From Deltaproteobacteria bacterium (GTDB lineage Bacteria > Desulfobacterota_D > UBA1144 > Nemesobacterales > CSP1-2), in assembly GCA_052390235.1 (NCBI GenBank), contig JBQTHB010000002.1, forward strand, positions 300,543 to 364,542: a DNA stretch of 64,000 nt, given 5' to 3'. The notes beneath the pieces were generated by a model. The model was given only the letters and a program-made list of their open reading frames with translations. It was not told the origin of the DNA and did no database searches. Shown piece by piece: positions 1 to 28,443 of this stretch. Position numbers and translations under genes: made by a program. Positions within the stretch are counted from its first letter, which is position 1; every line of letters begins with the position of its first letter.

Positions 1-3000
1 GAACCAACGGTTACAAATATAAGACCCGTCGAAGGTTCATGTTTCAATCCCTTATAGGTAGGCTAAGAACATTTAAAACTGCTCTTATTGCCGGGAAAAG
101 AGCCCGGGTTTCAATCCCTTATAGGTAGGCTAAGAACGCGGACAAAGGGAGAGAAAAAACTCCTCCCGTTTAGCGTTTCAATCCCTTATAGGTAGGCTAA
201 GAACTACGACCCCTTCGTAACCTCTTACCCTCCCAACCCCGAGTTTCAATCCCTTATAGGTAGGCTAAGAACTTTCTTTCTCCCTATACTCCGTGGTAAG
301 AATATAGGGTTTCAATCCCTTATAGGTAGGCTAAGAACCCCGGGTGGTTTACTTTTATGCGGATTATTTTTACAGTTTCAATCCCTTATAGGTAGGCTAA
401 GAACTGTTTCTCTCCACATTCGATACACCCTTGCGGTTAATGTTTCAATCCCTTATAGGTAGGCTAAGAACGACGTCTAGGGGTGTATGTAGATGGGGGT
501 TTATAACAGTTTCAATCCCTTATAGGTAGGCTAAGAACTTGTGCAAATTTGCACAAGTTGTGTTGTACTGCTCCGTTTCAATCCCTTATAGGTAGGCTAA
601 GAACCGTAGGTTATCCGTTTGGGTCGGGGGCATCGCGGAAGGTTTCAATCCCTTATAGGTAGGCTAAGAACTAAAAATCTTCCGCCCCTCCGGGAGGGGC
701 GTTGGTGGTTTCAATCCCTTATAGGTAGGCTAAGAACAATTAAAAAAATGGCTAGCTTTAGAGACCCGGGTCTCGTTTCAATCCCTTATAGGTAGGCTAA
801 GAACCAGATTATCCACCTCCCCCAAAGGGGGGAATGAATCGTTTCAATCCCTTATAGGTAGGCTAAGAACAAAATCCCAACAATGCGAGCGGGAGCGCTG
901 CCTCCCGGTTTCAATCCCTTATAGGTAGGCTAAGAACTAGTGATTATTTCCGAGTGGGACAAGGAGGTTCCGCCGTTTCAATCCCTTATAGGTAGGCTAA
1001 GAACAGGATAAAGAAAAATTTGGGGCTGACCCCACCCCGGGTTTCAATCCCTTATAGGTAGGCTAAGAACAAGGAGGTGTCAATGTTTACAAAAAAAGAT
1101 TTTTACCGTTTCAATCCCTTATAGGTAGGCTAAGAACGGTATTTCCCGCCGTACAGGTACAGTCGCACCACGGCGTTTCAATCCCTTATAGGTAGGCTAA
1201 GAACTTTCTCTAGCATCACGACATCTCCTCACTATTCTTTTGTTTCAATCCCTTATAGGTAGGCTAAGAACGAAAACATCGAACGGTGTAGGCGTATCCC
1301 CGTTCTGAGTTTCAATCCCTTATAGGTAGGCTAAGAACAGACTTCGATACCATCAATTCTGCACCCGATGTTATGTTTCAATCCCTTATAGGTAGGCTAA
1401 GAACTCCAAGATTACACCACCACCTATAGCAACCCCCGCTTGTTTCAATCCCTTATAGGTAGGCTAAGAACTATCAGACAGCCTCCGCTCCGAAGGATGG
1501 CTTCTGGAGTTTCAATCCCTTATAGGTAGGCTAAGAACGTACCGGCAAGGTTTCCGTGCTTGTTTGAGGAGTTCAAAGTTTCAATCCCTTATAGGTAGGC
1601 TAAGAACCTCCCTTGTCGAGGTTAGAGGGTTATTAGCCGAGGGGTTTCAATCCCTTATAGGTAGGCTAAGAACCCATAATTCCATCAGACACCTCAAATA
1701 TCTTTTTCGTGTTTCAATCCCTTATAGGTAGGCTAAGAACTCTTGGATAAGGTACAGCCTAGCTTTGCGAACGCAGTTTCAATCCCTTATAGGTAGGCTA
1801 AGAACTATATCTCTTTCTTCATTTTAGGATTTTCCATATTAGTTTCAATCCCTTATAGGTAGGCTAAGAACTGGTGAGCTATGATAGCGAGCGCAAGAGA
1901 TTCTATCGTTTCAATCCCTTATAGGTAGGCTAAGAACTTCCTCATTTATTTATCTCCTTTGTTTTTGTTATCTGTTTCAATCCCTTATAGGTAGGCTAAG
2001 AACACAGACGTCATACGAATAAACATCTATTTGGCTTTTGTTTCAATCCCTTATAGGTAGGCTAAGAACAAGCGAGAATCTCCTTTCGCTCCGCAGACAG
2101 CCTTGGTTTCAATCCCTTATAGGTAGGCTAAGAACCTGACAAGAAGAAGAAGAAGGGGGTGAAGTAATGAGTTTCAATCCCTTATAGGTAGGCTAAGAAC
2201 CCCGGCAACGAGTGCCATTTTAAATTCTGCCTCCGGTTTCAATCCCTTATAGGTAGGCTAAGAACTCTTGGCTAGTCTGGCTCAGTCCGACCCTTCTCTC
2301 ACGTTTCAATCCCTTATAGGTAGGCTAAGAACGCTTATTGCCCGTCGGATAACTCGCGCCAGTGAAAACGTTTCAATCCCTTATAGGTAGGCTAAGAACT
2401 ATTAGAGCATCGTTTTTGTATAGTATCGAGAGGTTCGGTTTCAATCCCTTATAGGTAGGCTAAGAACGGGATAGAGAGAAAGAAATAAGAGTTCGCAAGC
2501 CGAGTTTCAATCCCTTATAGGTAGGCTAAGAACGAGAGGTGTAGGCAGGTTATTTCGTGCATCTCTGCGAAGTTTCAATCCCTTATAGGTAGGCTAAGAA
2601 CGAGCCAGGCACGGCGGGGCAAGCGGGCGGGCGGTGGTTTCAATCCCTTATAGGTAGGCTAAGAACGCGCGCCCCGCTCGCTCCGCACTTTCGGTTGCTC
2701 CGGCGTTTCAATCCCTTATAGGTAGGCTAAGAACTAGGCTTATGTTCCTTAGCCGATTTGTACTTACCATGTTTCAATCCCTTATAGGTAGGCTAAGAAC
2801 GAACACGGCGGTAACGCTAGATGCCGGCAATACAGATATGTTTCAATCCCTTATAGGTAGGCTAAGAACTGGTGAGCTACGATACCGAGCGCAAGAGATT
2901 CTATAGTTTCAATCCCTTATAGGTAGGCTAAGAACAATTGAACCACAAATCAACTATCAGGCTGATATATTCGTTTCAATCCCTTATAGGTAGGCTAAGA

Positions 3001-4803
3001 ACCGACGCCCTGAGAAAACGGCTTTATATACGTATCCTTGTTTCAATCCCTTATAGGTAGGCTAAGAACTTGTTTGCGTTGTCGTATTCTGTACCGAGGG
3101 AACAGTTTCAATCCCTTATAGGTAGGCTAAGAACGCGGTCTAGCCACTGAGTCCGAGATTGCCTCGTTGTTGTTTCAATCCCTTATAGGTAGGCTAAGAA
3201 CGCAAGAGGGTAGGGAGATGATGATTTCCGTTGCCAGTTTCAATCCCTTATAGGTAGGCTAAGAACTTCGGAGAGGAGCTTAGAATCTGGGGTATGTTCC
3301 GGTGTTTCAATCCCTTATAGGTAGGCTAAGAACCCCCCCGCTCGCGCGCTCCTACTTCCTTCTTATTTGTTTCAATCCCTTATAGGTAGGCTAAGAACGT
3401 TGAAGGCTTGGCAGGAGTTTGTCGAAAAGAATAGGTTTCAATCCCTTATAGGTAGGCTAAGAACGGGAGGATGCAAAAACGACTGGAGTCTAACAACTTC
3501 CGTTTCAATCCCTTATAGGTAGGCTAAGAACCTATCGAAGAATTTCAAAAGTATATCCAAGAGGGAAAGTTTCAATCCCTTATAGGTAGGCTAAGAACGG
3601 GAGGGGGAGGGCGGAGTCGGCTTCATCTTCGGCGGTTTCAATCCCTTATAGGTAGGCTAAGAACGGTTTGAGCAAGGAGCTATGAAAGCCGTTCGGAACG
3701 GTTTCAATCCCTTATAGGTAGGCTAAGAACGCACTAGGGAAAGACATAGCTAGGCGCAAAGAAGCGAGTTTCAATCCCTTATAGGTAGGCTAAGAACTCG
3801 TATTCTGTACCGAGGGAACACAATAAGGCACAATAGTTTCAATCCCTTATAGGTAGGCTAAGAACAAGCCCTTTGGGAGTAATGTAATCATCGGGGATTC
3901 TGGTTTCAATCCCTTATAGGTAGGCTAAGAACTGAATATAGTTGACGGGCAATCGTACGCGGCGGTAAAGTTTCAATCCCTTATAGGTAGGCTAAGAACG
4001 AGATAAGAACTGTACGTCCGTCTGGCACATGGAAAGTTTCAATCCCTTATAGGTAGGCTAAGAACAGGGCTAGAGGCTCAGTTTATCCCTTTTGAGCTAC
4101 CGTTTCAATCCCTTATAGGTAGGCTAAGAACGCGTTGTGAATAGGCGAAATCGCGGAACAGGAGAGAAGTTTCAATCCCTTATAGGTAGGCTAAGAACAT
4201 GTATTCTCTGCCTGCGTCTTCGTCTGAAGATGAGGTTTCAATCCCTTATAGGTAGGCTAAGAACGCAGATATCCTTTATGCCCGTGAAATCGGAGATACG
4301 GGTTTCAATCCCTTATAGGTAGGCTAAGAACATGAGTAACCCTGAGAAGATAGAGAAGAATTTACGCCCGTTTCAATCCCTTATAGGTAGGCTAAGAACG
4401 ATGCTATCTCCAAACTAGAAATCACCGGAGAAGCAGTTTCAATCCCTTATAGGTAGGCTAAGAACATGAAGAGTCAAAAGCAGTCAAATCAAAGCGCCTC
4501 ACACGGTTTCAATCCCTTATAGGTAGGCTAAGAACTCGGAGATACGGTGAAAGTTTTACGCGGATGGAGCTAGTTTCAATCCCTTATAGGTAGGCTAAGA
4601 ACATTTCTCTTCGGATTTGGTGTTCGTTTTCCATTATGTGTTTCAATCCCTTATAGGTAGGCTAAGAACGCGTTTAAGGTTTCTTCTTGTGCTAGTACAC
4701 TGCGAAGTTTCAATCCCTTATAGGTAGGCTAAGAACTTTCAACGATGAGCTATTCCTACAAACCAAAGCCTAGGTTTCAATCCCTTATAGGTAGGCTAAG
4801 AAC
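1..4803 (-). CRISPR. CRISPR array, 72 complete 30-bp repeats (GTTTCAATCCCTTATAGGTAGGCTAAGAAC on the + strand) plus the last 4 nt of a further repeat at 1-4; spacers 35-38 bp; continues beyond the left window edge
   Basis: Exact repeat every 65-68 bp, counted from 41 to 4774. Bases 1-4 (GAAC) match the repeat 3' end and are followed by a 36-nt spacer. The leader and cas2 lie at the right end, so the crRNA strand is minus. The minus-strand repeat ends ...ATTGAAAC, typical of type I-B. Confidence 0.97.
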
Positions 4804-4973
4804 CCATTTCTCCCCAATAAATTCAGCATTTTCGATTATCAAAGAACAATATCTAAACTTAAACCTCTTATTTAACATTCTATGAAAACTCCCTGAAATT
4901 TCAACATTTTCCCTAAGTTTGCCTCTTCCGTCTATCCTCCGGTGTTTTTACGCTATTGGGGGTGGACGGAAAA
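4804..4973 (-). promoter_or_regulatory. CRISPR leader (AT-rich, between cas2 and the first repeat)
   Basis: 170 bp AT-rich non-coding sequence directly between the cas2 stop and the leader-proximal perfect repeat. Confidence 0.6.
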
Positions 4974-5237
4974 TCAGATGAATCTCTCTTCGCCTCCTTT
5001 TTTCACCCCTATGAGTAGCCGGTCGGTGTATTTGGTCGTCCTAAATGTGTAGAATATCAGAGAGTCGTAATCTTTGTCAATTATGGCTGTTAGCTCGTAT
5101 CTGAGCTTCTCGAATTGCGCCTCAGTGAGTTCGCCTTCGAGCACGGAATTCTGCACCCAATACAGATATTTGCGGGCGGTTTTCAGCACCTTGGCGACTC
5201 TCTTTTGCCCAACGTCATAGACTAGGATGATGTTCAT
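4974..5237 (-). CDS. cas2: CRISPR-associated endoribonuclease Cas2
   Basis: 87 aa; N-terminal MNIILVYDV...; sits between cas1 and the leader. Confidence 0.9.
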   Translation of the reverse strand: MNIILVYDVGQKRVAKVLKTARKYLYWVQNSVLEGELTEAQFEKLRYELTAIIDKDYDSLIFYTFRTTKYTDRLLIGVKKGGEERFI

Positions 5238-5274
5238 AATTCATGATACATGATGTATCGCGCATCTCGGCAAA

Positions 5275-6276
5275 TCACCACTCCCACAGAAACGGCGTAT
5301 ATTCCTCCTCCCCCATGAGGTGCTTTTCCAATTTATATAGCTCAAGCCTTATGAGCCGTCTATTCGACACGGGCTTCCCAATTTTCTTATGAGTGATGGT
5401 TGTCTCAAGCCTCTCCTCAAACTCCCTGGAAAATATCTTTGCGCCGTCTTCATTCATGACCACGCCGTCCATTTTTTTCTCGAAATGGTTTTTCTGGAGT
5501 TGCCCCTTGTTGACGAGCGAGAATATCATCCTATCAACGAAAATGGGTTTGAACACCTCCGCCACATCCAAATTGAGCGTGAATCGCCTGAAATTCGTCG
5601 TGTGAAGAAACCCGATGCGCGGGTCTAGGTGGGTTTTATAGATTTCGCTCAGCACAGTTGTGTAGAGTAGGGAGTTGCCGAAGCTGATGAGGGCGTTTAG
5701 GCGGTTTTTAGGCGGGCGGCGGGTGCGGGATTCAAATTTGAAATCGCCATCTTCAATAATCCCATCGAATGTGGAGTAATAAGCCTCTCGGATGTTCCCT
5801 TCAATCGCCATGAGGGAGTCTGTCGCCTCCTGCTTCGGGATGCTCTCGGAAAGGGCTGAGATGTAATCCGAGGTTTTGCCGATGTCCGCGCTCTCTTTCC
5901 TTCGGGCGTAGTAGTCAATGACTTTACGGATGTTGCCGACTGCGCCTTCGATGAATTTGCGGGCTATGGCGATTCTGGCTTTGGGGTCGTTGTAGTAGGT
6001 TGCCTGCTTCAGCGTCATGTAGCCTGAGTTTAGGTGTTCGCGCGGGTAGAAACTGCCGATGTAGTATTGATAGTGGTTGAAGAAGTGGAGGGTTATCTCT
6101 TTTTGCGATGCGAATTCCAGAAACCGCTTATTCAGCGTAACCTCGCCAAATATCATGAGCTCCTGCGTTCCCTCGACGGGGATAAATTTCTTCTCGCCCC
6201 GCTCGTTCTCGAAATAAATTGTGTTGTCCTTGCGCTTAAGCTCGCCGTCGCTGAAGATGAATATGCGTGTTTTCAT
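5275..6276 (-). CDS. cas1: CRISPR-associated integrase Cas1
   Basis: 333 aa with a Cas1-like sequence; adjacent to cas2 and cas4. Confidence 0.9.
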   Translation of the reverse strand: MKTRIFIFSDGELKRKDNTIYFENERGEKKFIPVEGTQELMIFGEVTLNKRFLEFASQKEITLHFFNHYQYYIGSFYPREHLNSGYMTLKQATYYNDPKARIAIARKFIEGAVGNIRKVIDYYARRKESADIGKTSDYISALSESIPKQEATDSLMAIEGNIREAYYSTFDGIIEDGDFKFESRTRRPPKNRLNALISFGNSLLYTTVLSEIYKTHLDPRIGFLHTTNFRRFTLNLDVAEVFKPIFVDRMIFSLVNKGQLQKNHFEKKMDGVVMNEDGAKIFSREFEERLETTITHKKIGKPVSNRRLIRLELYKLEKHLMGEEEYTPFLWEW

Positions 6277-6369
6277 CTTTTTCTAGGTTCTAGAGTGGTT
6301 TTCACACTAGTTTAATCCTTATGAAGCTGTCATGCCCGAAGTAGTAATTGGGCATCCATGTCTTCAACT

Positions 6370-6475
6370 ACTAGATTCCCGGCTTAAAAACTGCGGGAAT
6401 GACAACCTCTTGCATCTTGCCCAGGATACCGGAGTTTCTGTCCGGTCTCTGGATACTGCGGGAATGACATCCCGC
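6370..6475. repeat. MITE-like palindromic element copies (ATTCCC-N8-GGGAAT core, ...GGGAATGACA end) between cas1 and cas4
   Basis: ctagattcccggcttaaaaactgcgggaatgacaa and ctgcgggaatgacat; same family as 9445-9715, 10495-10570 and the others listed below. Confidence 0.8.
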
Positions 6476-6494
6476 ATCCTCCGTGCGTTACGCT

Positions 6495-7004
6495 TTAACT
6501 CCAGCAAAACTCCCGATATCCGCAGTTTGTGCAGTAGCCAATCTTTACCGCTTTTGGCGGAAGCTCCTGTGCGGCGATTCTCTTGATTTCATCAATTGCC
6601 CCCTCAAGCTCCGCAACCAACGCCTCGGTGAGCGAGACCTTCTCCTTCCTCTTCTCCTTCGGAAAAAGAAGCTCCCCTTCAGCCTCGATGCCGTAATCCC
6701 GCAGAACGTACAGATAGTAGGCAAGCTGCATCCTTGCCGCCTCTATCGCTTTTGAGCTTTTCTTAATCTCGCCGACCACGACTTTATCCTCATCGAGCCG
6801 CGTGAGGTCAATCACAACATTTTCGAGATGAATCTGCTTTTTATCTCTCTGATACGTGTTTTCGTTTATAAACCTCCCAAGCTCTATAAATGCATTGTCC
6901 TGATCCGGCACGATGTTCCTCGTCATAAGCCAAAGCTCTCGGCGGCAGATGTAGTAGCAGTCAATGAGAGTACCGTTCACTTTAAATTCGCTCTCGGCTA
7001 CCAA
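6495..7004 (-). CDS. cas4: Cas4 (RecB-like nuclease with Fe-S cysteines)
   Basis: 169 aa; N-terminal Cys and C-terminal CTNCGYREFC cluster; located between cas3 and cas1. Confidence 0.85.
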   Translation of the reverse strand: MVAESEFKVNGTLIDCYYICRRELWLMTRNIVPDQDNAFIELGRFINENTYQRDKKQIHLENVVIDLTRLDEDKVVVGEIKKSSKAIEAARMQLAYYLYVLRDYGIEAEGELLFPKEKRKEKVSLTEALVAELEGAIDEIKRIAAQELPPKAVKIGYCTNCGYREFCWS

Positions 7005-9427
7005 ATTGCCACGCCTCCTTTTAATTTATATCCGGTCTCAAAGTCGTAATACTCATCAATCTGGGAGCTTGAGACGAACGGCATTCCTTCGTCTATGGCA
7101 GGCAGGTTCACCCCCCCTCGCTTCGGCACGGAAACCGAATATTCATAAAACTTTGCCTTTATTTTATCAAACTTCTCTCTTCTCTCGAACGGATTTTGTG
7201 TTTCTCTTATATCTAAAAACTTTTCCCAAATATTTATTGCCTCATTATCAAACTGGATGAAAATATCTACTTTCTCGTAATCCTCTTCAATCAATCTAAA
7301 AGTCCATATACCGTTATCTCCATCGTAGTTCAGCCTGTAGAAGGCTTTGAGAATGTCTCTGGATTTCTGGTCGGATTTTGCCTCGGCAATAAGTTTATAG
7401 TATTCATCAATAAGGTTTAAAAACTCGCTTTCACCGATTTCCTCTCTACCGGAAAGCACTTTTCGGGTTCTGTCCAAAAGTATCGAGTCTTTGTTGTAAA
7501 TGTAGGTTGAGTATTCTCTTCCGGTTTTTCCATCTCTGAGCCTTATGACTCTTATCTCCCTGCCTGCCGATAGTCCGTTTCTGTTACATCTCCCCGCAGA
7601 CTGATTGATCGAATCAAGCGGGCAGAAGTCTCGATAAACAACGTCGAAGTCAATATCCACTCCCGCCTCGACAAGCTGAGTAGTAACGGCGATCCTCTTT
7701 TTCCTTTCTCTGATTTCGTCAATCCTCCTGAGTCTTTCTTTTGGAATCACGTGAGTTGAAAGGTATGTCATCTCTTCTCGCTTTAATCCACTTTCTCTGA
7801 GAAGGCTGTAAAATTCCTTTGCCGAGCCGATTGTGTTGAAGATGAAAAGAAATCTCTTGTCGCCCTTCAGAGCTTCAGTGATTACCGAACCTGCAAATTC
7901 TCTGATGGTTCTGGATTCGGCTATATCAGGCTTCAGAATTACTCTGTGCAAGCTACTAAAATATTTCTCTCTCTCGACAAGTGAAACTGTTTCTCCTCGT
8001 TTGAAAATCAGCGGCTCAGTTGCGGTTACAAATATGAAATATGTGCTGAATTTCTCAGCCATGAAGCGGATTATATCGCGCATGAGAAGCCAGTATTTAT
8101 GAGGGATTGCCTGAATCTCATCCAAGATTACGATGCTTCCCGCGATACGGTGAAACTTCCTTATGCTGCGGTTTTTATTGGAAATCAGCGTATGGAAAAG
8201 CTGTATGAACGTCGTAACGACAATCTCGGAGTTCCAGCCCTCAATCATAATATTCGAGGCGTCGAACTCAAAATCCTCATAATCAGTTTTCCAATGGTAA
8301 TTTACATCCGCCAGATGGTGGTGCTTGAGCAGAACCGGGCTCAGTGGCTCAATATCACTTGCCTTGAGCGCGTCCTCAAAAACTTTACAATTCTGGTCAA
8401 TTACGCTTAGGAATGGCAGAGAATAAATTATGCGAGAACTGTTGCTTCTGTCTTTCTGCATCTTCTCTCTTAGCTTCAGCGCAAAGGCAAGCGAGGTAAG
8501 GGTTTTCCCAAGACCTGTGGGAAGGTTTATTGAGTAAATCTTCTCATCAAGATTTATCTCACGGCTCAGAACTTCTTGAAACGCTTGTTCCCGAAGCTCG
8601 TCAATGTCTTTCTTTTCCCAATTCTGCTTCTGTTTATAACAGCTCACAATTTCATGGCTGAGATTAATTTTGCTCCCGAAGTTTGCTATTTCTTCTCTAT
8701 CTTTTTCTGATACGGCTACTTCATTTTTATCGGCGTCTAGCAAGAGGGAGTAAATAAGGTGAATCAGAAAGTAGTAATCGTAGCTCTCTTTCCCATACAT
8801 CGCCTCATATTCGTCTAGCATTTCGTAGCTTGCGTCTTTTATTTTCTTGAATCTCTCGCAGAGCCATTCATAAGAGAAAGGGCTGCCAAGCTTTTCAAGT
8901 AAGACGTTGAACTTTTGCTTATCGATACTTTCAAGCTGTTCCTGAAGGAGAGAAATATCACTGTCTTGAAACTCTATCTCACAGTTATATACATCCCCAA
9001 GGTTGCCGTGATGACGTTTGCACACCAGAAACGAGGCAATCGGAACAAATCTAAAAAGACCGTCGTATTTACCCTCTCTTTGCAGAAGTTCTTTTGTGAG
9101 GAAGTAAGCTATTACCGAGCCAAAAAGGGCGTGAGAGCTCTTTCTGCTTTTCAGCTTTTCCCTCTCTTCGCGAGTTTTCGCCGTAATATATTGCTGAAAA
9201 TAAGATGTAGCCTTTCCCAGATCGTGGGATGTCGTTATGATTTTTGCTACTTTCCTGAGCGTTTCTTTGTCAATAATACCAGCGGGATTATTTTCCAGAG
9301 AAAGCAGGGCGAGGTCGGTTACGGCTTGGGTGTGGTTTTCTAGGAATTTGCCCGGATGAGAAAATAATCCGGATTCTGTATTAATGCTTTCAACAATAAA
9401 GTTATTGGATTGGTTCTCATTTGCCAT
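6998..9427 (-). CDS. cas3: Cas3 HD-nuclease/helicase
   Basis: 809 aa; N-terminal HD motif (TTSHDLGK); helicase motifs (GLGKT, VILDEIQ). Confidence 0.9.
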   Translation of the reverse strand: MANENQSNNFIVESINTESGLFSHPGKFLENHTQAVTDLALLSLENNPAGIIDKETLRKVAKIITTSHDLGKATSYFQQYITAKTREEREKLKSRKSSHALFGSVIAYFLTKELLQREGKYDGLFRFVPIASFLVCKRHHGNLGDVYNCEIEFQDSDISLLQEQLESIDKQKFNVLLEKLGSPFSYEWLCERFKKIKDASYEMLDEYEAMYGKESYDYYFLIHLIYSLLLDADKNEVAVSEKDREEIANFGSKINLSHEIVSCYKQKQNWEKKDIDELREQAFQEVLSREINLDEKIYSINLPTGLGKTLTSLAFALKLREKMQKDRSNSSRIIYSLPFLSVIDQNCKVFEDALKASDIEPLSPVLLKHHHLADVNYHWKTDYEDFEFDASNIMIEGWNSEIVVTTFIQLFHTLISNKNRSIRKFHRIAGSIVILDEIQAIPHKYWLLMRDIIRFMAEKFSTYFIFVTATEPLIFKRGETVSLVEREKYFSSLHRVILKPDIAESRTIREFAGSVITEALKGDKRFLFIFNTIGSAKEFYSLLRESGLKREEMTYLSTHVIPKERLRRIDEIRERKKRIAVTTQLVEAGVDIDFDVVYRDFCPLDSINQSAGRCNRNGLSAGREIRVIRLRDGKTGREYSTYIYNKDSILLDRTRKVLSGREEIGESEFLNLIDEYYKLIAEAKSDQKSRDILKAFYRLNYDGDNGIWTFRLIEEDYEKVDIFIQFDNEAINIWEKFLDIRETQNPFERREKFDKIKAKFYEYSVSVPKRGGVNLPAIDEGMPFVSSSQIDEYYDFETGYKLKGGVAIW

Positions 9428-9444
9428 GCTGAATCTTCACCTCA

Positions 9445-9715
9445 TTCCATGAGCGGAGAAGCCATCATTCCCATGCAAACGGGAATCCGGCATTTAAAAT
9501 CACTAGATTCCCACTTTCGTGGGAATGACAACTACTGCTCTATTGTTTGCCTCTTTGTCATTCCCGCAGTCTTTTGAGCGGGAATCCAGCAGTTCTGAAT
9601 ACTGGATTATCAATTTCGTGGTAATAACGCCTAGATAGTTTGTCATTCTCGAACGCTTTATCGAGAATTCAGCAGTTCTCAAATACTAGATTCCCGTTTT
9701 CACGGGAATGACAAC
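9445..9715. repeat. Cluster of about 3 MITE-like palindromic elements between cas3 and cas5
   Basis: tagattcccactttcgtgggaatgaca; gtcattcccgcagtcttttgagcgggaatcc; gattcccgttttcacgggaatgaca. Confidence 0.85.
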
Positions 9716-9736
9716 ATAGCCAATTACCGAACCACT

Positions 9737-10462
9737 TTAGAGGAACATGATTCTTTCTCCATTTTCTATTTCCCAAAATCGCTGTGGAATAACAACAAAG
9801 GATTTTCCTTCAGCTTCGTACATCACCTCTCCGTATTCTGTAACCACTCTGTCTGTTGTCATCTCCATCGGTATTTTCTCTTTAAAATACTTTTTCCCCG
9901 GCTCAAATTTTATGCTGTCTTTCTTCTTTATAAGCCCCGAAAGAGGCACGACTGAACCAATCTCCGCTTCGGTTTCCATTTTTTCTAAAATGCCGAACTC
10001 TCCGACGTAGGAGAAATTGCATAACAACTCGCTCAAGCCTAAGCAGGGCGTATAAACCGATTTATGCCGGCTCAGATTATCTCTCAGACTTTCATAAAGC
10101 CATTGGTCGGTGTGAGAAATGTATATTCTAAACTTTGGATATTTTAAAAATTCGGTTCTAATTTGGGTTCTAGGTTCATGACCGCTCTTTTTAATCAGAG
10201 TCCAGCAGTTCCCCTTAGTGTTGATGAGGTTTATGCCGATTCTAGTCTTTTTCACAGGGTTTAAAAGCCTGATTCCTATGCTCGCATCCTTTTTAGAGAA
10301 ATGTTTAAGATATTCGTCTTTGCCTAATCCGATGATAGCCGCAAGAAGCCCTGTAACCGAAGTTCTAGGAGGAATCGAGAACGTAAGCGGCGAAGAGGTC
10401 GTGTAGAATTTCCTGAAATGTGCATAATCTCCCCACACATCAAATACAAGAACTTTGTCCAT
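9737..10462 (-). CDS. cas5: Cas5 (type I-B RAMP)
   Basis: 241 aa; N-terminal VFDVWGDYAHFR...; position between cas7 and cas3. Confidence 0.85.
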   Translation of the reverse strand: MDKVLVFDVWGDYAHFRKFYTTSSPLTFSIPPRTSVTGLLAAIIGLGKDEYLKHFSKKDASIGIRLLNPVKKTRIGINLINTKGNCWTLIKKSGHEPRTQIRTEFLKYPKFRIYISHTDQWLYESLRDNLSRHKSVYTPCLGLSELLCNFSYVGEFGILEKMETEAEIGSVVPLSGLIKKKDSIKFEPGKKYFKEKIPMEMTTDRVVTEYGEVMYEAEGKSFVVIPQRFWEIENGERIMFL

Positions 10463-10494
10463 TGTGAGCCTCTTTCTTTGTTTGTTTTTTTGTT

Positions 10495-10570
10495 TTGTTA
10501 TTCCCGAATATTTCTATCGGGAATCCAGTATTTAAAACTATGTGGATTCCCACTTTCGTGGGAATGACAA
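10495..10570. repeat. MITE-like palindromic element (TGTTATTCCCGAA...TCGGGAATCC + GGATTCCCACTTTCGTGGGAATGACA)
   Basis: Two-hairpin unit with TGTCATTCCC/GGGAATGACA-type ends. Confidence 0.85.
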
Positions 10571-10576
10571 GTTAAA

Positions 10577-10867
10577 TTATCTCGTCAACTCATCATACAA
10601 ATCCTTCCAATCAGGATTCACATTCTCAATAAGTTCGATTTTCCATTTCCGGTTCCATTTCTTCAGCCTTTTTTCTCTCTCAATGGCGCTATGTACATCG
10701 TTTGTTTGCTCATAATAAACCAAATCATGTACGCAGTATTTTTCGGTGAATCCCCTAGCTATGTTGCTTTTGTGTTCATAGACTCTCTTGAGCAAGTTAT
10801 TTGTAACGCCAATATAGAGCGTGCCGTTCTTTTTACTAGCCATAATATAAACGTAGTAAATATTCAT
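10577..10867 (-). CDS. GIY-YIG nuclease family protein (small UPF0213/COG2827-like) inserted inside the cas operon
   Basis: 96 aa; YVYIMAS...LYIGVT...RVYEHK...EREKRLKKW matches the GIY-YIG motif set. Confidence 0.8.
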   Translation of the reverse strand: MNIYYVYIMASKKNGTLYIGVTNNLLKRVYEHKSNIARGFTEKYCVHDLVYYEQTNDVHSAIEREKRLKKWNRKWKIELIENVNPDWKDLYDELTR

Positions 10868-10920
10868 ATATGCCCGCTAGTTATTAATTCACACCCTCGA
10901 CGAAAGATAACCCCTCGACC

Positions 10921-11215
10921 ATTGTCATTCCCGAACGTTTCTATCGGGAATCCACTTATTATTTAAATACTGGATTTCCACTTTAGTGGGAATGACGCCT
11001 ACATGGTTTGTCATTCTCGAACGCTCCCAGTCCAATACTTTCGGGGACAGTCCTTACCGAGAATCCATCAGTTCTGAAATACCGGATTCCCACTTTCGTG
11101 GTAATGATGCCTGTATGATTTGTCATTCTCGCAGTCTTTTGAGCGGGAATCCACTCATTCCTTCAATACTGGATTCCCGTTTTCACGGGAATGACAGACT
11201 AAAGATTGGAAATGG
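10921..11215. repeat. Three tandem MITE-like palindromic elements between the GIY-YIG gene and cas7
   Basis: ttgtcattcccgaacg...; tttgtcattctcgaacg...ggattcccactttcgtggtaatga; tttgtcattctcgcagtcttttgagcgggaatcc...ggattcccgttttcacgggaatgaca. Confidence 0.85.
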
Positions 11216-11238
11216 CATCTCACAATGACATATCGGAA

Positions 11239-12201
11239 TCACACCTTCATTTCTTGAACTGTAATCCCGTTAAATAACTCCGTGATAGGTCTCGGCGTAA
11301 TCTGAACCCTACCGTCCACTTTGTACTCCACTCTCTCTATCTTCTCTTTGTGCGTGGAAAGGGCCTTGGCAAGCTCTGTAAGGTCAAGTGAGACCTCTGA
11401 AATATCTCTTATCGCCTCGTCCTGCTTTTCTCCTTTCTCAAGTCGTACCATCTTATCCAAATCCCCAATGTGGAAATTCCCTTCTTTATAAACCACCCTG
11501 AGAAGCAACCTCGGCATCTGCCCAGCCTTCGAGCGTGAGATGAGGTTTTTCGTGCCATTCCATATCCCATCCATAAGAAGCGACATATCGCCTTCCGTAA
11601 GCCTCGTCTCTTTCGCTGCATTCTCATTGGCAACGCCCCAAAAGGCGATTAGCGAATAAGACAGGAAGTACTCTTCTCGGAATGATTTTTGCCCTTTTCC
11701 TTCTACTGCGAATGCAGCCGTACCTTTTATATACTGAAGATTTACCCTATGGAGAGAAGCGCCCATTTTAAATTGGACAGGCCCGGTATGAGTTATTGAA
11801 TCTTTGTCTAGTGGAAGTGTTGTGCCGAAGAGTCGTATATCAATACACTCTTTTAAAACATTCTCATTTATGATTTTCTTCATCTCAACTGCGCTGACAC
11901 TTCCTTTCTTCATTCTGCTTCCCGCCGAATCGGTAAAGAAGTGTTTGGCTCTCTGCTTCGCATCCTGCAATGTTCCCTTTTCTTCATCTGCAAATATTTC
12001 CCTTACAAATATTTCCTTCCCCTTAAAATCCTTCAGATAATCTCTGACAGTCCGCTTGAGTCTCACATCCGTTACGAAGTTCTTTCCGGTCTCTTCGTCA
12101 ATTCTCGGTTTGTTCTCGTCAACCGGGTCGCCGTTCGGGTTAGCGTTGCTTACGTCGTAGAGAAATAAAATCTCCGAGCGGTTTTTTATGATTTCACTCA
12201 T
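11239..12201 (-). CDS. cas7: Cas7 (type I-B, Csh2/DevR family)
   Basis: 320 aa; YDVSNANPNGDP...TGKNFVTDVRLKRTVRDY is a classic Cas7 motif. Confidence 0.9.
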   Translation of the reverse strand: MSEIIKNRSEILFLYDVSNANPNGDPVDENKPRIDEETGKNFVTDVRLKRTVRDYLKDFKGKEIFVREIFADEEKGTLQDAKQRAKHFFTDSAGSRMKKGSVSAVEMKKIINENVLKECIDIRLFGTTLPLDKDSITHTGPVQFKMGASLHRVNLQYIKGTAAFAVEGKGQKSFREEYFLSYSLIAFWGVANENAAKETRLTEGDMSLLMDGIWNGTKNLISRSKAGQMPRLLLRVVYKEGNFHIGDLDKMVRLEKGEKQDEAIRDISEVSLDLTELAKALSTHKEKIERVEYKVDGRVQITPRPITELFNGITVQEMKV

Positions 12202-13961
12202 TGCTTTCCCTCCTCCATGGTTTCTTTTTTCTCATAAACGATATTTGTTATCTCTTTAGCCAGATTCATCCCGCAGGCGAAGTAGAAATTTATTTCGTCA
12301 TTGGAGAGCTTCCATCCGTTACCGGCTTCGAGCAGGTAAAAAGAGACGGCTTCGGCAATCGCTCTTTTTCCTTTATCGAAGGATTTATACTCTTCCAGCT
12401 TGTTCTGCACCTTTGGGAGCAGTCCTTTGATTTCTTTCTCGCTCAGTTTAAGCCCCTGAAGCTGTTTTATGAACGGTTTGGACTTTTTGTCCTCATACTG
12501 CGTCCAGAAAAGCAGTTCGGTTAAAGCTCCTAAAAGGAAAATCCCTCTCGCCGCAGGTGTTGTGAAAGACTTTCCATACTTCTCGAAAAACGGAGAAAAA
12601 CTTTCTGTACTCATTGCGACCTCCTCGAATTTGATAAGACCTAGCTTTTCAAAAAAGAGCATGTCCAGTACTGCATCTCTTACGTCGAAAAAGAATTTGC
12701 CTCCTGTTTCTATATCTAAAAAATCTCTCCTTATTTTGTTCATCATAACCTGGAGAATGAAATGAAAATCGAGATTTCCTCCTTTGAAGGTTTTATCCAC
12801 TATTTCAAGGAAATATTTATCAAGGTCATTGCTCTTCTTCCCCTCATCCGACTTCTGAAAAAACTGCCTTATTCTCCTGAAGTTGAACTCAAATTTTTCG
12901 CCGAAAATCTTATCAACCTCGTCTTTCTTCTCCATTATCGTTCTGAGCCTTGAAGGAAGCACGTCTTCAACCAACAGGAGTATTCTCTCCACGCCGCCAG
13001 ATTGCTCTCTGCTTAGGAAGAAAAAGTTAAACGTCAGATAGTCGTTTTCTTGAGACAGCGTTCTCCAAATTCTGTTCTCTCTTACTACTATCTCCTTCTT
13101 GTCTGTGAGGCTTTGCTCATGTTTATTTATCATTTCAAAAATTCGGAATATTCTCTCTCTCAGTTCATCGCCGCCGAACATAAATTTAGGGACAATATAG
13201 TAACGCAGCCCGTAGAAGCTAAATCCGAGATTTGCCAAAACGAACTTCTTCCCTTCCTCAAGGCTCTGCTTGCACTCTCCGCAAACCGGATAATTCTTCC
13301 AAGCCTCTTCTTTCCTAAACCCGCCGCTTATAAATCCTGGCTTGTCATTCGTATAAAACTTGAAAATATCAACTACAAATACTGCATCTTTTGTCTTACT
13401 ACATAGCGAGCAGAGCTTGTCCTTGCTTGTTAATCTTGCATCTCTTTTAGCTGCGGCTTGAACTAGATAGCTTTGAAACGCCTCAAAGTCGCCAATATAT
13501 TTCTCATCGTCTCCGTCTTTTACCTTCACAGTTAACATCGCTTTTTTCTGTGTTTCATAACTTTTGACAGCATTTGCTATATTTTCTATATCGCTGATAA
13601 ATGCGGTTTTTAAATTTGTGAGAAACGCTTTGCCGTCTTCGCCAATTTGAAAGGGAGACAAATCCATCTTCTCAAACCATCCCTGAATTTTCCTAGGAAA
13701 AGTCTTGTCAAACTCCTTTAGCATAGCTGCAGGTGTGAAATTTACTCCATTTTTAGAGCCTGTTCTGTAGAGATACTTATTTACTTTCCCCAGATCGAAC
13801 TCCTCTAGCTTTACTTCTAAGAACTTAAAACCTTCCTCATGCTTTTCAAAAACTATGGCAATTACATTTTCAGCATTCGGTTTCTCAATAAGTGTGCTGA
13901 GAAGAGTTTTATTTCCCCTCTTTAAAATCGTGTCTCCCAGTTCTTTGACTGCTTGTATCAT
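12198..13961 (-). CDS. cas8b: Cas8b large subunit (type I-B)
   Basis: 587 aa large protein immediately upstream of cas7 with a 4-nt overlap; position and size fit Cas8b. Confidence 0.75.
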   Translation of the reverse strand: MIQAVKELGDTILKRGNKTLLSTLIEKPNAENVIAIVFEKHEEGFKFLEVKLEEFDLGKVNKYLYRTGSKNGVNFTPAAMLKEFDKTFPRKIQGWFEKMDLSPFQIGEDGKAFLTNLKTAFISDIENIANAVKSYETQKKAMLTVKVKDGDDEKYIGDFEAFQSYLVQAAAKRDARLTSKDKLCSLCSKTKDAVFVVDIFKFYTNDKPGFISGGFRKEEAWKNYPVCGECKQSLEEGKKFVLANLGFSFYGLRYYIVPKFMFGGDELRERIFRIFEMINKHEQSLTDKKEIVVRENRIWRTLSQENDYLTFNFFFLSREQSGGVERILLLVEDVLPSRLRTIMEKKDEVDKIFGEKFEFNFRRIRQFFQKSDEGKKSNDLDKYFLEIVDKTFKGGNLDFHFILQVMMNKIRRDFLDIETGGKFFFDVRDAVLDMLFFEKLGLIKFEEVAMSTESFSPFFEKYGKSFTTPAARGIFLLGALTELLFWTQYEDKKSKPFIKQLQGLKLSEKEIKGLLPKVQNKLEEYKSFDKGKRAIAEAVSFYLLEAGNGWKLSNDEINFYFACGMNLAKEITNIVYEKKETMEEGKQ

Positions 13962-13990
13962 AGGTTAGTCCTCATCTTTGTTGTCTAAAA

Positions 13991-14175
13991 GTGTCATTCC
14001 CAAATTTATTTATCGGGAATCTCATACTTTAGAACTGCCGGATTCCCACTTTCGTGGGAATGACACCCACACAATTTGTCATTTGCATGATTTGTCATTC
14101 CCGCAGTCCTTTGAGCGGGAATCCAGTGGTTGAAAAAACATGGATGCCCGATTGCTGCTTCAGGTATGACAAAAC
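13991..14175. repeat. MITE-like palindromic element cluster between cas6 and cas8b
   Basis: gtgtcattcccaaatttatttatcgggaatc; ggattcccactttcgtgggaatgaca; tttgtcattcccgcagtcctttgagcgggaatcc. Confidence 0.85.
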
Positions 14176-14197
14176 GCAAACATCGTATCTTTGGTTA

Positions 14198-14944
14198 TCA
14201 ATCCCCTCTCCCCACCACCTCAAAGCAGCCGAACCCCTGGGAGTTCTTGCCTCCCAGCCCCGCGTCATAGGCGAGCTTTATGAGTTCCCTATCTCCGCCG
14301 AGTTCATAAATCCCCATCCAGCCCTTGATGACGGTATCTCTGTAGAACATTATCTTCTCGTTCGAGTTATTCACCTTCACCGGCAGGAGCGATAACCCCC
14401 CTTCCGGCTCCCTCTCGTAGAAAGCCCTGAATTTCTTCTTGGCATTCTCGCCGATGAGTTCTGCAAATTCCCTCTCAAATGGGGTGTAGTAATAGGTTTT
14501 CTTTTTCCCATCTGCCCTGGACAGGGTGCTGTAGATAGTGGCTGGCGAGAGCATCTTGATTATGAGCTTGTCTGCCTCTACGGCGAAATCCGACATCTCT
14601 ACTGCCGCGAGCCGGAGCGTTTGCGAGTGGATTCTCCCCCGCTCCCCTCTGAGGAGTTCCTCGCCGAGTTCCTCAATAAATTCTCTCATCGGAGAGCTTA
14701 CAACGAGCCTGAACGGAGAGGCAAAGGTTATTGTCTCCTTCGATTTGTTAATTTCATATTCGCCGAGTATGCGAGAGAACGTAAAGAGCCGAAATGTTCG
14801 ACCCTGCGCGGAAAACCCCCTCGTGTGGAGCATGTCGGCGAGCTTCTGTGAGATGGAGCGATAGATAAAAGCCTGAACGTAGTGGCTGTGGTGAATGGGA
14901 AGGCTGAAGCCCGTGTCCGATGCGAATTCTAGGGTTAATCTCAT
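14198..14944 (-). CDS. cas6: Cas6 crRNA endoribonuclease
   Basis: 248 aa; C-terminal glycine-rich loop GLGGKNSQGFGCFEV; first gene of the I-B operon. Confidence 0.85.
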   Translation of the reverse strand: MRLTLEFASDTGFSLPIHHSHYVQAFIYRSISQKLADMLHTRGFSAQGRTFRLFTFSRILGEYEINKSKETITFASPFRLVVSSPMREFIEELGEELLRGERGRIHSQTLRLAAVEMSDFAVEADKLIIKMLSPATIYSTLSRADGKKKTYYYTPFEREFAELIGENAKKKFRAFYEREPEGGLSLLPVKVNNSNEKIMFYRDTVIKGWMGIYELGGDRELIKLAYDAGLGGKNSQGFGCFEVVGRGD

Positions 14945-15010
14945 TTTAGGCTACGAGTGATCTAAACTATATAGCGTATTATAATCCGCGCCATAGCCGT
15001 AATAAAGCCC
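14945..15010 (-). promoter_or_regulatory. Possible cas operon promoter (TATAAT-containing AT-rich stretch upstream of cas6)
   Basis: cgtattataatccgc about 35 nt upstream of the cas6 start on the minus strand. Confidence 0.25.
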
Positions 15011-15184
15011 CCGCAATATTTCGGCAACGTTGCGCTTCCATCTCTAAGGCTCAATCCCCAATTGCTTCCAGACAGGAGGGGGGGCGTGTGCCGTACATCG
15101 GGGGTTTTCTCGGCGCGCTTAGGCGGGATGATGGGAATTATCCCGTAGCCGCCAAAGGGTAGGGTGTGGTGAGAGCGGACTGCC

Positions 15185-15439
15185 TTATCGTCCGTCTTTA
15201 TTGAACGGGATGGATATTGAAAGCTCGTCTCTAGTGAGTCCGGTTTTAACGTTGACCTCAATGTTGTCCAAATTGAACTGAGGGTATTTCCCGAACACGT
15301 TTACTAGATCCTGCCTCACGCGCTGGGTGAAATCCGTCGGAAGGTCTTTGCGCTCGTAGGATAGTACCACCATGAGCCTCTCTTTGGCGATGTCGGCGGA
15401 TTTGGGTTTTCTGAAAAAATCGAATATTGACATAATCAA
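15185..15439 (-). CDS. minE: Cell division topological specificity factor MinE
   Basis: 84 aa with a MinE-like sequence; follows minD with a 4-nt overlap. Confidence 0.85.
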   Translation of the reverse strand: MIMSIFDFFRKPKSADIAKERLMVVLSYERKDLPTDFTQRVRQDLVNVFGKYPQFNLDNIEVNVKTGLTRDELSISIPFNKDGR

Positions 15440-23439: not shown

Positions 23440-23830
23440 AATGGTTCGACTCCGCTCACTATCAAGAGGAGAAAACCAACAAAACCCTCCTTCATCCTCA
23501 GCGGAGTCGAAGGGTGAGTAGCTGGGCTAATATCACTATAAACTACGTCGAATGCGGGGGTAGTTCGGGCGGGGTTTATCCTGAGCTTGTCTAAGGGTGA
23601 GGGGAGTCATCGGGCGGTGAATACTGGATTCCCGCTCAGTTCTGCGGGAATGACAGCGACTTTTACATAACTAGCGGCATTAGCGCGTAACGTGAGCGCG
23701 GGAGAGATAGAGATAATATTTCCGCCGCTTCCCTTCACCCTGAGCGGAGTCGAAGGATGAGTAGCTGGGCTAATATCACTATAAAATATGTCGAATGCGG
23801 GGGCGTACATCAATTGCGCCGCTCCTCCAT
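23440..23830. repeat. Repeat cluster: two about 95%-identical copies of a ~60-bp element (cctgagcggagtcgaagg(g/a)tgagtagctgggctaatatcactataaa) plus a MITE-like element
   Basis: 23488-23545 and 23742-23800 are near-identical. Inverted pair ttcgactccgctca (23449) / tgagcggagtcgaa (23492). ggattcccgctcagttctgcgggaatgaca at 23619-23650. Confidence 0.8.
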
Positions 23831-26509: not shown

Positions 26510-26690
26510 TGACTCTGCTCAGGATGAAGATGGAATGGATTCCCGCTCTGAGGACTGCGGGAATGACAAACAGGCTCACTACCATTCCAAGCCTCATTCT
26601 TGTCGTTTCGAGCGATAGCGAGAAATCCTGAATTAGATTCCTCATTCCTGTCATTCTCACGAAAGTGGGAATCCATAGTTTCGACTCCTC
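26510..26690. repeat. Composite repeat (family-B head, MITE-like ggattcccgctctgaggactgcgggaatgacaaa, tgtcattctcacgaaagtgggaatcc)
   Basis: Near-identical to 42300-42480. Confidence 0.8.
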
Positions 26691-26974
26691 ATATCTCTAT
26701 CCTCCTTTTTTTGAACTGCTCGAACCATGCAGATACAAAGCTGGAATTGCCAGAGCGGGGCAATCCATCATATATTAAAAATATAAATCAATATCAATTT
26801 GATTCTATCGGAATGAGAGGGAATATCAAGCGGAGATTCATAGAAAATTCGGATGTAAATAGTGGGGCTTATGGCGTATTTCGATACGGTTGCCGCGCCA
26901 GCGACGGTTTGCCAGCCGCCGCGAGAAGGGGCTAATTTTGTGAACTGCTATAATTATTTCTCTTCTTCCCAGCG

Positions 26975-27120
26975 CCTCTGCCCCGCCTAAGCCCCGTGTG
27001 CCAGGCGACGACCCCGACCGAGCGCCCCGAGACTTACCCATGCAACGGCGAGGTGGTCTCCGAGCAGGGCGGAGAGAAGCCCGGTCAAGCTGACTATTGC
27101 AATAATCATCGGGGCGCAAA
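26975..27120. repeat. Direct-repeat copy 1 (about 150 bp, about 85% identical to 28243-28400), containing the 3' part of a small membrane protein gene
   Basis: cgagcagggcggagagaagcccggtcaagctgactattgcaataatcatcggggcgc is identical in both copies. Confidence 0.8.
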
Positions 27121-28242: not shown

Positions 28243-28443
28243 TCAGCCTCTGCCCCGCCTAAGCGCCGCGTGCCAGGCGGCGACCCCGACCGGCGCGCCG
28301 AGAGTTGCCCATGAAACGGCGTCCCACAGGTGGTCTCCGAGCAGGGCGGAGAGAAGCCCGGTCAAGCTGACTATTGCAATAATCATCGGGGCGCGGAACA
28401 CGGCGAGAAGGCTTGTCTTTGCCGGTGAATTATATTTTTTCAT
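28243..28443 (-). CDS. Small hydrophobic membrane protein; its 3' half is duplicated at 26987-27120
   Basis: 66 aa; ...APMIIAIVSLTGLLSALLGDHL...; 4-nt overlap with the upstream PepSY gene. Confidence 0.45.
   Translation of the reverse strand: MKKYNSPAKTSLLAVFRAPMIIAIVSLTGLLSALLGDHLWDAVSWATLGAPVGVAAWHAALRRGRG

Follow-up and report, generated by a model that had tools for sequence, protein, structure and literature searches.

[quoted passage not shown] Along that strand, cas6 (14198-14944), cas8b (12198-13961), and cas7 (11239-12201; PF05107, E 1.2e-62) are followed by cas5 (9737-10462; PF09704, E 4.3e-09; Cas5b in the NCBI record) and cas3 (6998-9427), and then by cas4, cas1, and cas2; the CRISPR array (41-4803, at least 72 repeats) comes last. 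Between cas7, its upstream neighbor in the host operon, and cas5, its downstream neighbor, lies an open reading frame for a GIY-YIG protein of 96 aa (10577-10867, minus strand), hereafter ssn. The gaps that separate this gene from its neighbors measure 371 nt on the cas7 side and 114 nt on the cas5 side.

GC3 is 0.45-0.50 across the block from cas8b to cas3 and 0.61-0.68 in cas6, cas4, cas1, and cas2. The jump between cas6 and cas8b coincides with a cluster of hairpin repeats (13993-14170; the SRM hairpins described below); no hairpins were found at the compositional boundary between cas3 and cas4. A scan of the cas7-cas5 interval for promoters and terminators gave no convincing candidate and nothing above shuffled sequences. 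Given this result, and as ssn is on the strand of the cas genes, it is likely transcribed by read-through with the operon. The CRISPR spacers of the window did not match ssn or the hairpins, and an Rfam search of positions 4800-15200 returned no matches.

The Nuclease and Its Family

The ssn protein matches the GIY-YIG profile PF01541 over residues 4-77 (E 2.4e-16; 60.2 bits, against a cut-off of 22.6) and contains no other domain. A preliminary description of this DNA had read the ORF as a GIY-YIG nuclease gene of 96 aa that interrupts the cas7-cas5 junction; the profile search bears out the first point, and the gene order and coordinates the second. The AlphaFold (AF2) model of the protein (pLDDT 90.9) has the GIY-YIG fold in one compact domain; among solved structures it comes nearest to BH0048, a UPF0213 protein, and to the nuclease domain of Slx1 (1zg2, 4xlg). 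The small GIY-YIG proteins of UPF0213 (BH0048, EF2693, E. coli YhbQ) and the Slx1 domain thus provide the closest solved folds; however, their sequence similarity to the window protein is marginal (24% identity). When the PDB was searched by sequence, the single protein gave no match, and a profile recovered UPF0213 weakly, at E 4e-4. We know of no hairpin association for UPF0213. The label COG2827-like, given in the preliminary description, is therefore approximate, since the match to the UPF0213 structures is weak and that to SsnA of Neisseria is strong. No Ssn structure was found among solved structures. Searches of NCBIfam, which has no Ssn family model, and of PADLOC gave no match above cut-off, and no homolog was detected in the phage collection. 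The 64-kb window contains no second copy of the gene.

The link to Ssn was traced through the hairpin sequence in the full-text literature. SsnA of Neisseria meningitidis is a single-domain GIY-YIG protein of 94 aa (cd10448; Chenal et al., Nat Commun 2025, PMC11893778), from a family that these authors treated as separate from UPF0213 (PMC11893778). It binds a 28-nt hairpin, the NTS (CGTCATTCCCGCGMAVGCGGGAATCYRG), which includes the repeat formerly known as dRS3; binding occurs only on single-stranded DNA, and the cut falls a few nucleotides upstream of the hairpin (PMC11893778). The enzyme is inactive on duplex DNA, on RNA, and on the opposite strand, and its cleavage is abolished by the substitutions Y6A, Y17A, and E64A (PMC11893778). 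SsnA reduces transformation by NTS-flanked DNA (PMC11893778). Ssn homologs across bacteria are flanked by related hairpins, termed "SRM"; the authors described the NTS-ssnA-NTS arrangement as IS-like, drew an analogy to REP/RAYT, and stated that the role outside Neisseria is unknown (PMC11893778).

Our comparison with Neisseria was made with the N. gonorrhoeae ortholog, taken from two chromosomes in a plasmid collection. This ORF has 94 aa, with Y6, Y17, and E64 as published for SsnA. The window protein is 53% identical to it (47/89 residues; blastp E 7e-36, where the similarity criterion of the Ssn paper is E < 1e-10), and in a 7.3-Gb database it matched the N. gonorrhoeae chromosomes at a tblastn E of 4e-25. 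Both are single-domain GIY-YIG proteins of about 95 aa, below the limit of 150 aa applied to the family, in which the catalytic Tyr, Tyr, and Glu align: Y7, Y18, and E65 of the window protein correspond to Y6, Y17, and E64 of SsnA, and these positions are invariant in 30 homologs. The window protein retains every family-invariant residue. Going by this homology, we assign the window ORF to the Ssn family.

More than 6,600 homologs of the ssn protein are detectable. The best 120 are 69-80% identical to it and come from MAGs labeled Dadabacteria, Omnitrophota, Berkelbacteria, Ignavibacteria, Thermodesulfobacteriota, and others, many of them on very short contigs. Between the window gene and the copy in L005, one of the related operons compared below, pN is 0.10 and pS is 0.77, with synonymous sites saturated. 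The gene is under purifying selection, and the low pN in the face of a saturated pS indicates that it has been kept functional for a long time.

Hairpins Around ssn and Its Homologs

Repeat units bracket ssn, one on the cas5 side (doublet A, 10497-10568) and three on the cas7 side (doublets B, C, and D, at 10924-10996, 11010-11108, and 11122-11195), as the preliminary description had reported. Each unit of about 75 nt comprises two hairpins and is here called an SRM doublet; each strand has one of the two hairpins in NTS orientation. On the cas-coding strand, the unit reads GTCATTCCC-stem-loop-stem-GGGAATCCA, a spacer of about 15 nt, and TGGATTCCC-stem-loop-stem-GGGAATGAC. In doublet A, located in the gap between ssn and cas5, the NTS-oriented hairpin GTCATTCCCACGAAAGTGGGAATCCAC begins 8 nt past the ssn stop and is followed on the cas-coding strand by the inverted hairpin TGGATTCCCGATAGAAATATTCGGGAATAAC; as single-stranded DNA this doublet folds at -16.7/-17.5 kcal/mol (z -4.9/-5.3). 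Doublet B lies upstream of ssn and ends 55 nt short of its start codon; oriented hairpins thus occur within 500 bp of the gene on either side. Doublet C is degenerate (family D1/D3), its first hairpin carrying a long insertion, and doublet D contains a minus-strand hairpin, TGTCATTCCCGTGAAAACGGGAATCCAG, that fits the published SRM pattern.

Additional doublets occupy other gaps of the operon. Three lie between cas3 and cas5 (9464-9529, 9557-9628, and 9642-9712), where the hairpin at 9686-9713 fits the published SRM pattern; two lie between cas8b and cas6 (13993-14064 and 14094-14170), and an SRM-like doublet is found between cas4 and cas1 (6329-6403). As single-stranded DNA, the window units fold better than shuffled sequences (z -3.3 to -5.7). 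Shuffled sequences lead one to expect 0.13 occurrences of the half-motif GGATTCCC-N8-GGGAATGAC; the window has 12. A scan for typed, oriented hairpins recovered 23 in the window, where Markov simulations gave 0.67, and 16 of the 23 fall within the cas operon of about 10 kb; the density is about 1.6 per kb in the operon versus 0.13 per kb elsewhere in the window. Hairpins of the operon subtypes also occur in the window backbone, which has a higher GC content (23628, 26539-26672, and 42338-42545), which suggests that the system acts, or has acted, genome-wide.

We counted hairpins with this oriented scan in place of the published SRM pattern. The scan requires stem complementarity, and base-pair covariation of the hairpins is for this reason partly circular and was not counted as independent proof of structure. 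The published pattern fits only two hairpins in the window, of which only the one at 11169-11196 lies within 500 bp of ssn. It misses most of the window hairpins because these have CCCAC or CCCGA stems or long loops; several loops are 9-10 nt or longer. The hairpin type GGATTCCCACTTTCGTGGGAATGAC of the window is almost identical to hairpins beside the gonococcal ssnA. We predict that the window hairpins are the cognate recognition sites of the window Ssn.

The association of gene and hairpin extends to homologous genes in about 80 other genomes from many phyla, where the genes are bracketed by such hairpins. The survey used one genome per GTDB species; more than 574 ssn loci were found and 80 were kept. 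Typically, a hairpin GTCATTCCCGCGAAAGCGGGAATCCAG ends a median of about 18 nt before the ATG, and an inverted copy, CTGGATTCCCGCTTTCGCGGGAATGAC, starts a median of about 10 nt past the stop. Both hairpins (GTCATTCC...GGAATCCAG upstream and the inverted copy downstream) accompany 47 of 81 homologous genes in GTDB genomes, and 15 further genes have one of the two; the background in the surveyed loci is 0.14 such hairpins per kb. The reversed arrangement, inverted upstream and forward downstream, was found at five genes and is also the arrangement of the window. Gonococcal ssnA has an inverted NTS about 105 nt upstream and a forward NTS 3 nt past the stop; the corresponding distances in the window are 55 and 8 nt. 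The hairpin consensus, TGTCATTCCCGCGAAAGCGGGAATCCAG, is that of the Neisseria NTS.

The preliminary description had called the repeats MITE copies that flank the gene. We read the units as doublets of the NTS/SRM hairpin, the ssDNA site recognized by Ssn nucleases, as seen at the 47 homologs, and not as a MITE family independent of the gene. Since many homologous genes lie between such ends, as they would within a parent element, a "MITE" unit of the window can be understood as the gene-flanking pair of hairpins minus the gene. The terminal inverted repeats of the units are GTCATTCCC...GGGAATGAC, and no target-site duplication is visible at the junctions. The sole protein associated with the units is a hydrolytic nuclease without known transposase activity, and no transposase was found.

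The surveyed loci were also compared with the Cas proteins. None of the eight window Cas proteins was matched in 555 kb of sequence around 84 other ssn loci. The closest relatives of ssn outside cas operons adjoin patatin, cobT-like, and methyltransferase genes.

Comparison with Related I-B Operons

Five related I-B lineages lack the insert (L007/8/9, L012, L100, L101/102, and L103). In these, the distance from the cas7 stop to cas5 is only 2-10 nt; their Cas5 and Cas7 proteins are 68-78% and 72-81% identical to those of the window, respectively. No disruption of cas genes was seen in the fetched DNA of the five lineages. The preliminary description had given cas7 directly upstream of cas5 as the usual layout and the ORF as an insertion relative to orthologous I-B operons. 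The five lineages agree with both statements: because cas7 abuts cas5 in all of them, ssn and its repeats are best read as an insertion.

A copy of ssn is present at the cas7-cas5 junction, on the matching strand, in three of eight lineages (the window, L005, and L099), a count that leaves out the close Cas5 clusters P0124, P0125, P0128, P0130-P0132, and P0134. In L005/L004, a Candidatus Dadabacteria MAG, ssn lies 30 nt past cas7, and a doublet (3300-3378) follows 8 nt past the ssn stop, in the same position as doublet A of the window; it is the only doublet in L005. In L099, a Logan contig, a doublet is followed by a 46-nt leader, ssn, and one hairpin 14 nt past the stop (about 1834-1856). 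As a conserved component of this I-B subtype, a possibility that the preliminary description had considered, the ORF therefore has a limited standing: it recurs in L005 and L099, and it is missing from the five insert-free lineages, with no cas genes at the 84 other loci.

The ssn proteins of the window, L005, and L099 are 78-79% mutually identical, and each is among the nearest relatives of the others in the full set of homologs; the Cas proteins of the three operons differ by 20-30%. In a blastn comparison, L099 and the window gave one colinear alignment that runs through doublet B, the leader, ssn, the SRM, and cas5. The window and L005 likewise align colinearly at the nucleotide level through ssn, the hairpins, and cas5. 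All three copies resemble one another in the stretch from the stop to the hairpin, and their hairpin subtypes are related. No stretch in which the window and L005 are more alike than elsewhere was found beside the junction. Judged by the colinear nucleotide alignments and the similarity of the junctions, the three cas-embedded copies share ancestry; trees do not carry this conclusion.

A tree of the 96-aa ssn proteins does not separate single from multiple insertion. By their Cas proteins, L103 branches outermost and the window after it, with a star-like pattern among the others; operons that carry ssn are not grouped as a clade. Mosaic composition is also evident. Between L007 and L008, Cas5 and Cas3 are 100% identical, Cas7 is 89% identical, and Cas8b only 64%; between the window and L099, Cas4 is 91% identical, versus 69-77% for the effector proteins. 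The closest relatives of the ssn from the Dadabacteria MAG (L005) lie in non-cas contexts.

Interpretation of the Module

We consider it most probable (roughly 0.7) that the locus harbors an Ssn nuclease with its cognate hairpins, residing as a REP/RAYT-like passenger in this I-B clade and not serving as a CRISPR component. By homology to the characterized enzymes of Neisseria, N. elongata, N. wadsworthii, and Wolbachia, the window Ssn would be a hairpin-guided ssDNA nickase. It would bind the hairpin 5'-GTCATTCCC-stem-loop-stem-GGGAATCCA-3' only when this is single-stranded, and would nick only the strand that carries it, a few nucleotides to the 5' side, leaving duplex DNA, RNA, and the complementary strand uncut. 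Because the two hairpins of a doublet are placed head-to-head, one per strand, with the NTS orientation pointing inward, the nicks are predicted just outside both doublet ends, on opposite strands; around ssn itself, they would lie in the intervals that separate the hairpins from the ORF. Together, gene and hairpins would form a self-contained module that acts like a REP/RAYT pair. Such a module may have entered the cas7-cas5 junction in an ancestor of the I-B clade, traveled since then with the effector block while being read from the cas strand, and placed further doublets in almost all intergenic gaps of the operon. That doublets are so concentrated in the operon is most simply explained by local spread near ssn, much as REP clusters lie beside RAYT genes. 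The ssn product would lack a CRISPR role and would stand outside Cascade and the adaptation machinery. The earlier proposal of a composite insertion or hitchhiking nuclease thus survives as regards an inserted passenger; a composite transposon is very improbable.

Some of the data speak against a passenger. Three diverged operons, in MAGs labeled as different phyla, keep an intact ssn at the same junction, and selection tied to cas would predict likewise; operons with ssn do not group together by their Cas proteins, and mosaicism is found among the operons; and only two window hairpins satisfy the published SRM pattern. The module might be a selected fixture of a I-B lineage, which either governs the exchange of cas8b-cas7-cas5-cas3 by nicking hairpin-studded single-stranded copies or acts on Cas3 single strands. 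We think this improbable; if true, it would give Ssn its first biological role in an organism other than Neisseria and add a CRISPR-linked nuclease of a new kind. In a reading that concerns recombination, the hairpins would expose incoming single-stranded copies of the operon to cleavage by Ssn and in this way control how the effector cassette is exchanged or replaced when DNA enters by conjugation or transformation; selection would have favored the module for its effect on the locus, rather than for immunity itself. This agrees with the finding that an NTS-flanked gene integrates less by transformation in N. meningitidis in an SsnA-dependent manner (PMC11893778). It would also suit the doublets in nearly all intergenic gaps of the operon, the GC3 break of the cas8b-cas3 block, one boundary of which falls at a hairpin cluster, and the mosaic composition of the related operons (L007 and L008; Cas4 of the window and L099). 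However, the insert-free operons are mosaic too, so that mosaicism is independent of ssn; the compositional boundary between cas3 and cas4 is without hairpins, the clustering of hairpins by ssn is also expected from simple local spread, and L005 has one doublet only. Control of recombination by the module is therefore unlikely.

A co-opted accessory nuclease, which would trim or nick Cas3 single strands or prespacer intermediates and be kept by the operon of this I-B lineage for that purpose, appears quite improbable to us. Both interference and adaptation in type I systems produce single-stranded DNA, which counts in its favor. Three operons with Cas proteins 20-30% apart have kept the gene intact, each at this junction and on the cas strand. 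Purifying selection acts on the gene, which has no evident promoter of its own, and ssDNA is the substrate of Ssn (PMC11893778). On the other hand, ssn is absent from five of the eight close lineages, whose cas genes are undisrupted in the fetched DNA, and where present it is accompanied by hairpins of its own, just as it is away from cas genes. The gaps to its neighbors are unlike the tight or overlapping junctions of true subunits, and there is no cas linkage at the 84 other ssn loci. Purifying selection is family-wide, with Ssn proteins 60-80% identical across phyla, and the enzyme requires a specific hairpin that is not normally found on invader DNA. The suggestion in the preliminary description of a co-opted accessory Cas nuclease is hence not favored by its distribution, with ssn missing from those lineages and no cas genes near the other loci.

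It does happen that free-standing homing endonuclease genes settle between conserved genes, and two models, T5orf172 and the group I intron endonuclease, weakly match the ssn protein. A chance insertion of a free-standing GIY-YIG homing endonuclease of the Seg/I-TevI type, or of a composite transposon made of unrelated MITEs, is nevertheless very improbable. The protein has 96 aa and no DNA-binding domain, it scores 20.8 bits with TIGR01453 against a cut-off of 56.05, and it has no phage matches. The repeats are cognate hairpins of Ssn that lie beside homologs in dozens of phyla, and neither a target-site duplication nor a transposase was found. Protein size, model scores, and the family-wide hairpin association together contradict both versions. 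The Seg proteins (T4 SegA-G) and I-TevI do share with the window protein the GIY-YIG domain, and the Seg/I-TevI type resembles it in having a gene lodged between two conserved operon genes. They differ in having at least 200 aa and C-terminal DNA-binding modules, and in cutting duplex DNA at the empty allele, whereas the window protein is a catalytic domain alone, from a family that cuts only ssDNA.

Returning to the passenger reading, the nearest known system is SsnA/NTS itself. The likeness includes the hairpin core ATTCCC-N8-GGGAAT with its oriented flanks GTC... and ...CCA, the inverted hairpin upstream with an NTS-oriented hairpin right past the stop, and the dispersal of hairpins that cluster in intergenic DNA. 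In contrast to Neisseria, the host of the window is an uncultured deltaproteobacterial or Dadabacteria-like MAG, the window hairpins are mostly fixed doublets of two different hairpin types, and ssn lies inside a type I-B cas operon, a context absent from PMC11893778.

REP/RAYT pairs (REPINs) and the TnpA proteins of IS200/IS605 resemble the window system in that one gene is flanked by, and tied genome-wide to, palindromes recognized as single strands. As in REPINs, the Ssn hairpins form inverted doublets, and the gene is usually single or low copy. However, Ssn is a hydrolytic GIY-YIG nuclease, whereas RAYT is a Y1 HUH transposase with a covalent intermediate. As a GIY-YIG and not a Y1 HUH gene, the window gene falls outside REP/RAYT, and the likeness is functional and architectural only. 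To our knowledge, strand transfer by a hydrolytic GIY-YIG nuclease has no precedent.

We found no relevant report in a search of the literature for GIY-YIG proteins together with cas operons or type I-B systems, or together with REPIN, REP, or MITE elements or YhbQ/UPF0213/COG2827. CRISPR appears in the Ssn paper only as a comparison from biotechnology (PMC11893778). The gene and its repeats would represent an already known pair, Ssn plus SRM/NTS, and for their location in a cas operon no report was found. Ssn nucleases have been known as a family only since 2025, and here a module of theirs appears to have been carried for a long time inside a horizontally mobile CRISPR-Cas operon. The locus offers a compact natural system for the effects of Ssn and its repeats on surrounding genes, including their expression, recombination, and transfer. 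For CRISPR annotation, the module accounts for an odd nuclease and MITE-like repeats in a I-B operon and advises caution with the label of accessory Cas protein. Searches for SRM hairpins are affected as well, since the published pattern overlooks most of the hairpins found here.

Palindromic candidate RNA structures that overlap I-B cas genes have been cataloged (PMC9067536). Together with the degenerated mini-CRISPRs that encode CreR, these I-B-embedded RNA elements resemble the window element in being small non-cas elements or palindromes in intergenic or terminal parts of the operon; they are linked to crRNA-like guides or are of unknown nature, whereas the window element consists of a protein gene and DNA hairpins.

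Mosaic structure of the I-B operons

The cas operon of the window (4974-14944) is a compositional mosaic when GC3 is calculated for each gene. The genes cas8b, cas7, ssn, cas5, and cas3 have GC3 values of 0.45-0.50; the values for cas6, cas4, cas1, and cas2 are 0.61-0.68, similar to those of the adjoining minCDE genes. By its composition, the effector block resembles a cassette that came from a lower-GC donor.

Judged by their protein identities, the related I-B operons are recombinants. Between L007 and L008, two operons in which cas7 abuts cas5 and ssn is absent, Cas7 is 89% and Cas8b 64% identical, yet Cas5 and Cas3 are 100% identical. When L008 is compared to L101, another ssn-free operon, Cas5 is 83% identical, yet the identity of Cas7 is 98.5%. 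The effector proteins of the window are 69-77% identical to those of L099, a Logan contig that also carries ssn at the cas7/cas5 junction, and the Cas4 proteins of the two are 91% identical.

In the second operon with ssn at this junction, from a Candidatus Dadabacteria MAG (L005), cas8b was called as two ORFs of 286 and 318 aa (222-1989); this split may reflect a frameshift or an assembly error. The cas3 of this operon (4138-6291) was called as separate HD and helicase genes.

Hairpins and other repeats

In ssn-free relatives, a hairpin resembling the SRM repeats of the Ssn family (GTCATTCCCGAAAGCATTAATCGAGAATCAGG) is located directly after cas5, in frame within the first codons of cas3 (L007, 3425-3449; L008, 7734-7758; L009, 3687-3711; L101, 5734-5758; L102, 4496-4520). 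The cas5/cas3 junction of the window contains three of the two-hairpin doublets. The in-frame hairpin in cas3 may be what is left of a colonisation by hairpins, since taken up into the ORF.

SRM hairpins also occur in two mosaic intergenic clusters of the window (26518-26680 and 42317-42600), alongside further repeat modules, GTCATTCCGAGCGATAGCGAGAAATCCTGAATTAGATTCCTCAT among them; a 96-nt module is present three times in these clusters, which are similar to BIME/NIME arrays. Further direct repeats have no relation to the hairpins: an exact 67-nt stretch with a 47-nt companion repeat (26974-27117 and 28246-28394, copies 1,277 nt apart), and a 61-nt pair (23500-23560 and 23743-23803, 243 nt apart).

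The CRISPR array (41-4803), which extends to the start of the window, comprises at least 72 repeats (GTTTCAATCCCTTATAGGTAGGCTAAGAAC) and 71 spacers of 35-40 nt. None of these spacers had a meaningful match among the hairpins, the fetched ssn loci, or the remainder of the window.

ssn loci outside cas operons

An Ignavibacteriaceae MAG (L072) contains a tandem ssn pair (3130-3408 and 4001-4279, about 870 nt apart). The same long-loop hairpin precedes each copy and an inverted copy of it follows each; the first ssn appears to be interrupted.

The ssn homolog P0003, at 79% identity among the closest ssn relatives, is flanked in L095 (neighbourhood at 4588-7713) by a nucleotidyltransferase gene on one side and by an N6/N4 methyltransferase and HNH pair on the other, and six hairpins surround it. 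This setting is another defence-type neighbourhood, not a cas operon.

The Neisseria ssnA locus used in the test for Ssn membership was taken from two 2.17-Mb N. gonorrhoeae records, NZ_CP119140.1 (L104) and NZ_CP119142.1. PLSDB lists both among its plasmids, and they carry almost no annotation; they are evidently chromosomes.
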